Of a stretch of 64,000 bases of DNA, positions 23,028-23,662 are shown piece by piece. Source of the DNA: Schmidtea polychroa (lineage: Eukaryota); contig CM097885.1 of NCBI GenBank assembly GCA_044892525.1, forward strand, positions 19,532,001 through 19,596,000. The letters are read 5' to 3'. The stretch's first letter is position 1. The number at the start of each line of letters is the position of its first letter. The notes below the pieces were generated by a model that was given only the letters and a program-made list of their open reading frames with translations, ran no database searches and was not told the origin of the DNA. A program made the translations under genes and the position numbers.

Positions 23028-23255
23028 TCCCCCTGCCAGACCCAACACCAGATGTACCGTGGCTTCTTTCCTAACGTTATAATCTAATAACGTTAAGCCA
23101 TCTTTTAATATTTTCCCCGCAAAATTGAGTTTTTGCCGCCCTGGGGGTATCCCTTATTTTTCTTGAATTTTAGCCTTTACATTCTCAATAGTATCACTTG
23201 ATTCTACTTCCAAAGTTATTGTTTTTCCTGTCAATGTCTTCACGATTAATTGCAT
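23028..23255 (-). pseudogene. Diverged ubiquitin unit 2, fused in frame to Gag (E34 to stop)
   Basis: [75 protein letters not shown], exactly 76 codons; TAA at 23154-23156. Confidence 0.95.
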
Positions 23256-23485
23256 TCCACCCCTCAATCGCAACATTAAATGCAAAGTAGACTCCTTTTG
23301 AATATTATAATCAGATAATGTTCGCACATCTTCTAATTGTTTCCCCGCGAAAATTAATCTTTGCTGGTCAGGTGGACTACCTTCTTTATCTTGTATTTTC
23401 GCTTTTACATTTTCTATCGTGTCACTAGATTCAACTTCGAGAGTAATTGTCTTTCCTTTAATGTTTTTACAAATTCCCGCGCCAA
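23256..23485 (-). pseudogene. Ubiquitin unit 1 (near canonical, 1-bp deletion near 23458)
   Basis: [72 protein letters not shown], preceded by another IRGG. Confidence 0.95.
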
Positions 23486-23662
23486 TCCACCTCTAATAGG
23501 GTTAGGGAGGGCAGGCCTTAGGGGAAATGTTTCAAACAAATCAATACATGTCAATACATATAATATGATAAAAATACAATACATATTACATATATATATA
23601 ATACAATACAAATAAAAGACAAACAATATATGTAACATACCTTGTTCCGGCTGGCTAGCCGG

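Follow-up and report, generated by a model that had tools for sequence, protein, structure and literature searches.

Why a retrotransposon should carry ubiquitin in front of its Gag, and where that ubiquitin came from, is the question raised by a 64,000-nt stretch of Schmidtea polychroa DNA, here called the window. An earlier note, made from the letters of the window, had described two head-to-tail ubiquitin units preceding a BEL/Pao Gag. This arrangement was borne out: unit 1 lies at 23482-23256 and unit 2 at 23255-23028 on the minus strand, and a DUF1759 Gag follows directly. The units belong to an element spanning 19950-24573 (minus strand), which is a non-autonomous copy in a BEL/Pao retrotransposon family, without RT and integrase. 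Its features are the following.

23681..24573, minus strand: 5′ LTR of 893 nt, beginning TGT and containing the start of the Gag frame (1 mismatch in 737 nt against the 3′ LTR)
24448..24520, minus strand: long stem-loop by the 5′ end of the LTR (fold of the first 144 LTR nt)
23681..24231, minus strand: leader frame encoded by the LTR, opening at its first ATG (24231), running up to the LTR end and then on through the PBS (frame reading)
23738..24099, minus strand: captured pieces of a proteasome alpha subunit mRNA, part of them as three 78-nt tandem repeats (Pfam Proteasome, E=4e-5)
23710..23715, minus strand: AATAAA, a putative poly(A) signal 29 nt before the LTR end, where the leader reads Asn-Lys
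23663..23680, minus strand: PBS within the open frame, complementary to the 3′ end of tRNA-Met (matching 3′ end present in tRNA-Met(CAT) genes)
23520..23640, minus strand: T-rich spacer coding for a hydrophobic stretch, out of frame here (copy comparison)
23486..23497, minus strand: IRGG, derived from IKNK and not conserved (comparison with the pre-capture subfamily)
23256..23482, minus strand: unit 1, assigned by host comparison to host polyubiquitin repeat 2 (codons 4-76), without Met, with I36S and an LRLRGG end
23163..23255, minus strand: unit 2 codons 1-31, assigned to host polyubiquitin repeat 3 as the end of the same patch (6% synonymous difference)
23028..23162, minus strand: unit 2 codons 32-76, assigned to an old element-borne Ubl with I44N and an LGLAGG end (host and subfamily comparison)
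22116..23027, minus strand: BEL/Pao Gag, stopping short of the zinc knuckle (DUF1759 at about 22619-22194, Pfam E=2.7e-9)
20702..22191, minus strand: acidic tail in place of pol, broken here (homologous tails in non-autonomous copies of subfamilies A and B)
20687..20701, minus strand: polypurine tract (read directly)
19950..20686, minus strand: 3′ LTR of 737 nt, with the same proteasome fragment and one repeat unit (LTR alignment)

The two LTRs differ at 1 of 737 aligned nt. Both flanks of the element read AATAA, which is weak as a target-site duplication because it is AT-rich. The first 144 nt of the LTR fold at -69.6 kcal/mol (z -6.7), a value equalled by none of 200 shuffles. Several frame breaks, none of them reported in the earlier note, were found in the copy: IRGG and the body of unit 1 lie in different frames because of a break close to where unit 1 starts, unit 1 is one base short, and unit 2 carries an in-frame TAA at 23156-23154. 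The LTRs look recent in spite of these breaks, which hints that even a broken parent could be mobilised in trans.

The fusion is a property of the whole family. In a DNA search (462 candidates), all 40 scored candidates, the window copy included, were at least 94% identical. A 26-mer lying in the latter half of unit 2 was present at 89 genomic places with at most one mismatch. A private insertion in this copy, or random decay of unit 2, was rejected on this identity and on the sharing of the LGLAGG tail described below. A 40-mer covering the PBS and leader had 191 exact genomic copies. One PBS is common to three subfamilies: A has the di-ubiquitin and mostly no RT/integrase; A0 has a single Ubl, with tail and Gag as in A; B has a single, different Ubl ending LRLCGG and one frame of up to 2238 aa through pol. 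In none of them does a Met stand at the Ubl start. Pol is present in family members, L173 and L183-L187 matching the protein P0121 along pol; in L173, a pol-bearing A copy, an in-frame deletion removes the spacer, unit 1 and half of unit 2. The acidic tail is shared by non-autonomous A and B copies (window 20702-22191 on the minus strand; L043, L102) with Gags only about one third identical; its frame is open nearly to the polypurine tract, and its final segment resembles, by eye, a degenerate RNase H.

The likeness to BEL/Pao as profiled in PMC8742986 lies in LTRs of 0.7-1.1 kb, a PBS, a polypurine tract and DUF1759 Gag, and in the continuous Gag-Pol with Peptidase_A17, RT, integrase and DUF5641 seen in relatives. 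In the family itself we observed DUF1759 Gag, paired LTRs within the 0.2-1.2 kb range of the group, the PBS, the polypurine tract and target-site duplications, which are clear at 5 bp in L037, L039, L047 and L049; the Pol order PR-RT-RH-IN with Peptidase_A17 is present in family members and absent from the window copy. The profile (PMC8742986) gives a PBS for tRNA-Arg or tRNA-Gly and a non-coding leader, whereas here the PBS is for tRNA-Met, a frame started in the LTR runs through it, and Ubl-GG stands before Gag. The tRNA-Met PBS and coding leader are treated as a variant trait and not as exclusion from BEL/Pao. A BEL/Pao superfamily, 'Flow', is described from cnidarians and a planarian in the available sections of PMC3118150; those sections, and the available ones of PMC8742986, make no mention of ubiquitin. 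A tandem array of tRNA-Met(CAT) genes with a period of 454 nt was located at G000:C1:79.326-79.387 Mb, and the tRNA 3′ motif had 1228 genome matches.

The units were aligned to host polyubiquitin, as the earlier note had suggested, by comparing same-residue codons between 26 A copies free of gaps and 13 ubiquitin units taken from 6 host genes. Codons 4-76 of unit 1 differed from repeat 2 of the polyubiquitin gene at G000:C1:43.415 Mb at 4-7% of such codons, against 36-67% for the other 12 host units. Codons 1-31 of unit 2 differed by 6% from repeat 3 of the same gene, and codons 32-76 by 50-72% from all 13 host units (saturated, with about 15 replacements), which upholds the claim that this tail is element-specific. 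The saturation of codons 32-76, taken with the match to repeats 2 and 3, shows one contiguous host mRNA patch inside an older Ubl. The di-ubiquitin is thus an older single Ubl into which about 104 codons from a single host polyubiquitin gene were set. Host-like contigs placed against the window match it over 23152-23457 and lose the match on either side, in agreement with the borders of the patch, and both polyubiquitin junctions sit in homologous ubiquitin sequence in a check of switch-point microsimilarity. Tandem duplication of one captured unit was rejected, as units 1 and 2 within a copy differ at 55-65% of same-residue codons; so was a host polyubiquitin gene or retrocopy, as there is no Met, LTRs flank the unit pair, and half of unit 2 is not host-derived.

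The older Ubl could be seen on its own. Of 40 candidates scored in a further search, 34 matched unsplit. Sixteen A0 relatives were fetched, and all 12 that could be read have one Ubl; the other four loci, which had no PBS match, were left out of the A0 counts. In L175 the first half of the single Ubl is diverged from all 13 host units and the second half matches unit 2, so that for this copy descent from a di-ubiquitin by deletion is ruled out. Remodelling of unit 2 after capture was rejected on the same match, together with the saturation of its second half. LGLAGG is accordingly the old tail of the element and not a remodelled capture: the patch was recombined into an older Ubl, which survives in the pre-capture subfamily. 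Of what the earlier note had proposed for unit 2, a shared tail lacking Arg72 and Arg74 was confirmed, and the remodelled second half gave way to a remnant of an older Ubl. Five A0 copies (L193, L196, L197, L201 and L202) carry between PBS and Ubl a fragment that we take to be eIF4A-like; it gave no Pfam hit in the one copy tested.

L174 and L176 are intermediates that keep Ile36 and IKNK, and we infer the order single Ubl, patch, I36S, and lastly IKNK to IRGG. The earlier note had regarded IRGG as a possible third processing site; this idea falls, since the pre-capture subfamily reads IKNK there and IRGG is not conserved. IKNK and IRGG differ by A-to-G changes only. In the window (23470-23500) and the family, the change from IKNK-LAQIF to IRGG-LARVF forms a cluster of A-to-G changes, which also abolishes an AATAAA; the cluster looks like A-to-I editing that would have been fixed by reverse transcription.

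The diGly tails were counted by eye in the first 30 A copies, and each was readable in 28. For unit 2, LGLAGG was exact in 22/28 and GG was kept in 26/28, both losses being singletons; none of the 28 had Arg72 or Arg74. For unit 1, GG was kept in 22/28, with six losses made up of five G76V, at five loci, and one G76E. The G76V change blocks cleavage of ubiquitin, and as it is common to five copies at five loci, the unit-1 site seems dispensable, at least in non-autonomous copies. Unit 1 is newer, as the earlier note had it, in being part of a recent host patch, and the companion proposal that it is more constrained fails on these losses. GG was lost in 4 of the 12 A0 copies, each by a different change. 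Selection on the single segments was read from frame counts, tail counts and host comparisons only. The I44N change in the older Ubl takes away the usual ubiquitin-binding patch.

Ubl-Gag fusions were also found beyond this family. In P0121, a protein of 2010 aa whose Gag is 35% identical, a leader and the PBS peptide come first, followed by a Ubl with an RLLGG end and by a complete BEL/Pao Gag-Pol. Among the best 150 Gag relatives of a profile search, a Ubl precedes Gag in six, and a seventh starts with a Ubl tail. Altogether eight proteins from other samples carry a Ubl or Ubl tail before Gag, seven of them with a GG end. Counting A/A0 and B, there are ten lineages; GG is kept in 9/10, and positions 72 and 74 are variable. 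P0186 has a PBS-like peptide and, between it and the Ubl, an Hsp90 fragment (E=1e-11). A quick tree was built from 73 of 81 rows (8 left out); its branches are long, 0.5-2.8 changes per site, and all 11 Ubl-bearing rows and one partial protein fell on one side of a branch with an SH-aLRT of 97. Four Ubl-less relatives (P0124, P0129, P0171, P0236) have a Met start within about 20 residues of the position after GG, and one Ubl-less relative is named as from a bivalve.

Our analysis of these data favours Ubl-GG as the site where a host deubiquitinase or Ubl protease would cut Gag free of a variable leader, a reading we hold to be probable, though by no means secure. A cut after GG would leave Gag with an N-terminus near that of the start Met of the Ubl-less relatives. 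The patch would have put a canonical site ahead of the old one, without being essential. Diverged Ubls can be cut: Fubi, with Leu at the position of Arg74, is cut by USP36 (available text of PMC10611586), and the SDE2 Ubl, less than 20% identical to ubiquitin, by USP5 (available text of PMC13572447). Several observations weigh against the release reading: the G76V shared among unit-1 copies, the frame breaks of the recent-looking window copy, the out-of-frame stretches in A and A0, the A0 copies that have lost GG, and the in-frame deletion in L173. The tail of the A lineage may also be a poor protease substrate, because both arginines are absent, I44N is present, and R73A blocked cleavage of SDE2 by USP5 in the same account (PMC13572447). 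The missing arginines, I44N and the R73A result are also what would speak for the old Ubl as an uncleaved Gag cap, a folding aid or interaction module close to the less cleavable cap suggested in the earlier note, with the new canonical junction as the real release site in the di-ubiquitin subfamily; the abundance of the patched form, judged from the A-type 26-mer, fits as well. Such a cap is nonetheless unlikely, as single-Ubl A0 elements, which share this tail and a leader without a Met at the Ubl, have transposed too, GG is kept across nearly all lineages, and its losses are commoner in unit 1 than in unit 2.

The order LTR leader, PBS, T-rich spacer, Ubl-GG and Gag was found in one reading frame. 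This start within the LTR and the host mRNA fragments that the frame carries, the main feature of the element, are absent from the earlier note. Upstream of the PBS in the window copy, the Gag frame is open for 184 aa, against 6 and 10 aa in the other frames. A survey covered 87 PBS-anchored stretches (A 41, B 22, A0 14; 10/87 unassigned), tandem and segmental duplicates being counted separately. The median open length upstream of the PBS was 218 aa in A, with at least 100 aa in 34/41 against 1 and 0 in the other frames; 197 aa in B (at least 100 aa in 17/22); and 64 aa in A0 (at least 100 aa in 6/14). In shuffled LTRs, 100 aa were open in 0.1%. Out-of-frame stretches numbered 10/41 in A and 6/14 in A0. 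The T-rich spacer differs in length among copies and mostly preserves the frame; out of 45 classes of spacer length, the frame is kept in 25 (p=0.002, duplicates counted separately). The spacer was also considered as a spliced intron, having a donor-like GT and an acceptor-like AG, and this was rejected on its mostly frame-keeping length; no GT-AG joint across it was found in four contig sets, in which contigs could miss splicing. Contigs from runs guessed as RNA cover Gag and were not counted as evidence of expression.

The leader carries host sequence. Pfam hits in the Gag frame of various copies comprise Proteasome, DSPc, LIM, Ras, Cpn60_TCP1, Cofilin, SelR, Adaptin_N, CLP_protease, Myotub-related and EAP30, 11 unrelated families altogether. 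The LTR piece of the window is 91-93% identical to exons of a proteasome alpha gene at G000:C1:117.275 Mb, and in the LTR of L176 proteasome alpha pieces are joined across an intron, which is absent. In the LTR of L189, seven exon pieces of an Adaptin_N-family gene at G000:C2:78.764 Mb, which we take to be coatomer gamma, are joined at 86-98% identity. Such joins show the leader pieces to be intron-less copies of host genes. The cargo was found in both LTRs of a copy and lies mostly inside the LTRs, upstream of a kept Gag; as AATAAA lies 29 nt before the LTR end, it probably sits in a long R region. At the position of AATAAA, most leaders compared read an N-K dipeptide regardless of cargo.

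Several observations accompany the cargo. In DSPc cargo (L045:7115-8239 on the minus strand, L075, L036, L043), the catalytic HCxxGxSRS is kept in some LTRs, and in others it has gone through a short in-frame deletion. Proteasome_A_N had 80 genome-wide matches, far above the number of host subunit genes; those inspected besides host genes (L138-L142) are mosaic frames, at least three of which resemble this LTR family. L131-L137, tried as donor loci of the proteasome cargo, turned out to be other subunits. A host chaperonin donor gene was not found, the candidate L234 being an LTR.

We suppose that the leader pieces would be brought in by RT template switching onto co-packaged mRNAs, and that inserts keeping the frame would be favoured because translation starts upstream of the cargo. 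The polyubiquitin patch may have arrived by the same switching, guided by homology. The ubiquitin might itself be nothing but frequent cargo from an abundant mRNA, with the long frame serving only to avoid NMD or to package in cis and GG having no role. Polyubiquitin fragments do occur as ordinary cargo in dispersed mosaic frames (L054-L058, L065), non-autonomous copies keep the frame almost to the polypurine tract, and broken copies seem mobile. We nevertheless regard this as quite improbable: cargo is copy-specific, whereas the Ubl is fixed in place before Gag, with GG kept, over the long branches of the tree.

The layout recurs in a second element of the window, of Gypsy type, identified by Pfam and frame reading.

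54819..63207, plus strand: Gypsy element, with LTRs at 54819-55957 and 62085-63207 (98.3% identical)

Here a frame opened in the LTR with a host-like piece is followed by the PBS, a hydrophobic stretch, Ubl-GG and a DUF7041 Gag. The leader in the 5′ LTR has a signal-peptide-like start and then a KIAA0319_N piece (E=1.7e-7); the Ubl at 57323-57523 (Pfam ubiquitin, E=4.6e-8) ends FFGG, and the frame contains one TAG, at 56312. All 40 scored copies of this family were at least 98% identical, and the LTR-end sequence differs in other copies. GG was kept in 15/15 correctly oriented copies (L246 left out of the count), and at least 428 aa were open upstream in seven. The same layout in BEL/Pao and Gypsy suggests a general design. 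Elsewhere in the window, an intron-less open frame of 441 aa at 13400-14725 (minus strand) resembles, by eye, an amine-type G-protein-coupled receptor, and remnants like transposases and helicases were recognised by eye at 3653-4258, 32133-33874, 37462-37944 and 28999-29280.

The hydrophobic stretch before the Ubl in both families (median best 19-residue hydropathy 1.66 in BEL and 2.59 in Gypsy) raises another reading, in which the leader functions as a product anchored in membranes and the stretch, with ubiquitin, routes Gag to membranes or ESCRT for budding or vesicle release. The start and KIAA0319_N piece of the window Gypsy leader would suit it, and foamy-virus Gag fused to ubiquitin buds ESCRT-dependently, according to the available part of PMC2958808. 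T makes up 30-67% at all three codon positions, so the hydrophobicity may be compositional, and stretches reaching 1.6 make up only 55%. P0121 has no clear equivalent stretch by eye, and the usual ubiquitin-binding patch is abolished in lineage A by its I44N. We consider this routing rather improbable, and continue with release of Gag at Ubl-GG as the preferred account.

Each part of that account has a precedent: LTR elements capture mRNAs, ubiquitin serves elsewhere as a processing tag, and in yeast Ty1 the Gag frame starts in the LTR. The ubiquitin insertions of BVDV are cut by cellular hydrolases. In cytopathic BVDV (PMC13517609), one or two copies from host ubiquitin mRNA are likewise recombined directly before a mature protein, NS3; those insertions are sporadic RNA-virus variants, whereas here an old, fixed, diverging Ubl has been renewed a single time from the host. 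Similar to the present family are LTR-mediated retroposition (Tan et al., 2016; PMC5131818) and maize Bs1, cited there, in their intron-less partial host mRNAs, multi-gene chimeras, further rounds of transposition and template-switch model. However, the retrocopies of Tan et al. (2016; PMC5131818) replace internal ORFs between the LTRs, whereas here most cargo lies inside both LTRs and in the Gag frame, and Gag (in B also Pol) is kept behind the Ubl.

Fubi-eS30 (PMC10611586) and SDE2 (PMC13572447) share with the element a diverged Ubl with diGly before a downstream protein, at which a USP cuts; their Ubls start at Met, whereas that of the element is internal, behind a long leader, and is known here from its sequence. 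The giant planarian Gypsy Burro/GYPSM1 is comparable, in the sections available of PMC6431247, in having a polyprotein with host-like domains including a Ubi2/SUMO-like one; there Gag is N-terminal, the Ubl lies within a protein of 4,900 aa, and those sections describe no LTR-encoded leader. Our literature search, whose scope was set outside Repbase reports and supplements, returned no description of a BEL/Pao ubiquitin-Gag fusion or of Gag-frame cargo inside LTRs, and neither is mentioned in the available parts of PMC11410931, PMC9289625 and PMC3118150.

A wider idea, which we put forward as possible but doubtful, is that the Ubl release tag has two separate origins, one in a deep BEL/Pao clade and one in the Gypsy family, and that with it the front of the Gag frame became free to serve as a library of host-protein fragments, translated and continuously reshuffled. 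Once released, the mosaics of phosphatase, GTPase, chaperonin and proteasome pieces, which may be membrane-anchored, or else their RNA, might affect the host, whether as decoys, by self-mimicry against silencing or in some other way.

If cleavage at GG is true, Gag maturation in these elements would depend on a host ubiquitin protease. The capture is visible stepwise, from an old Ubl through a homologous polyubiquitin patch to drift. For the host genome, the family is a large and recent source of chimeric host-gene fragments, which can mislead gene annotation and may feed small-RNA cross-silencing. For the element, the arrangement would offer a concrete way in which an LTR retrotransposon can tolerate constant mRNA capture within its own LTR and frame.
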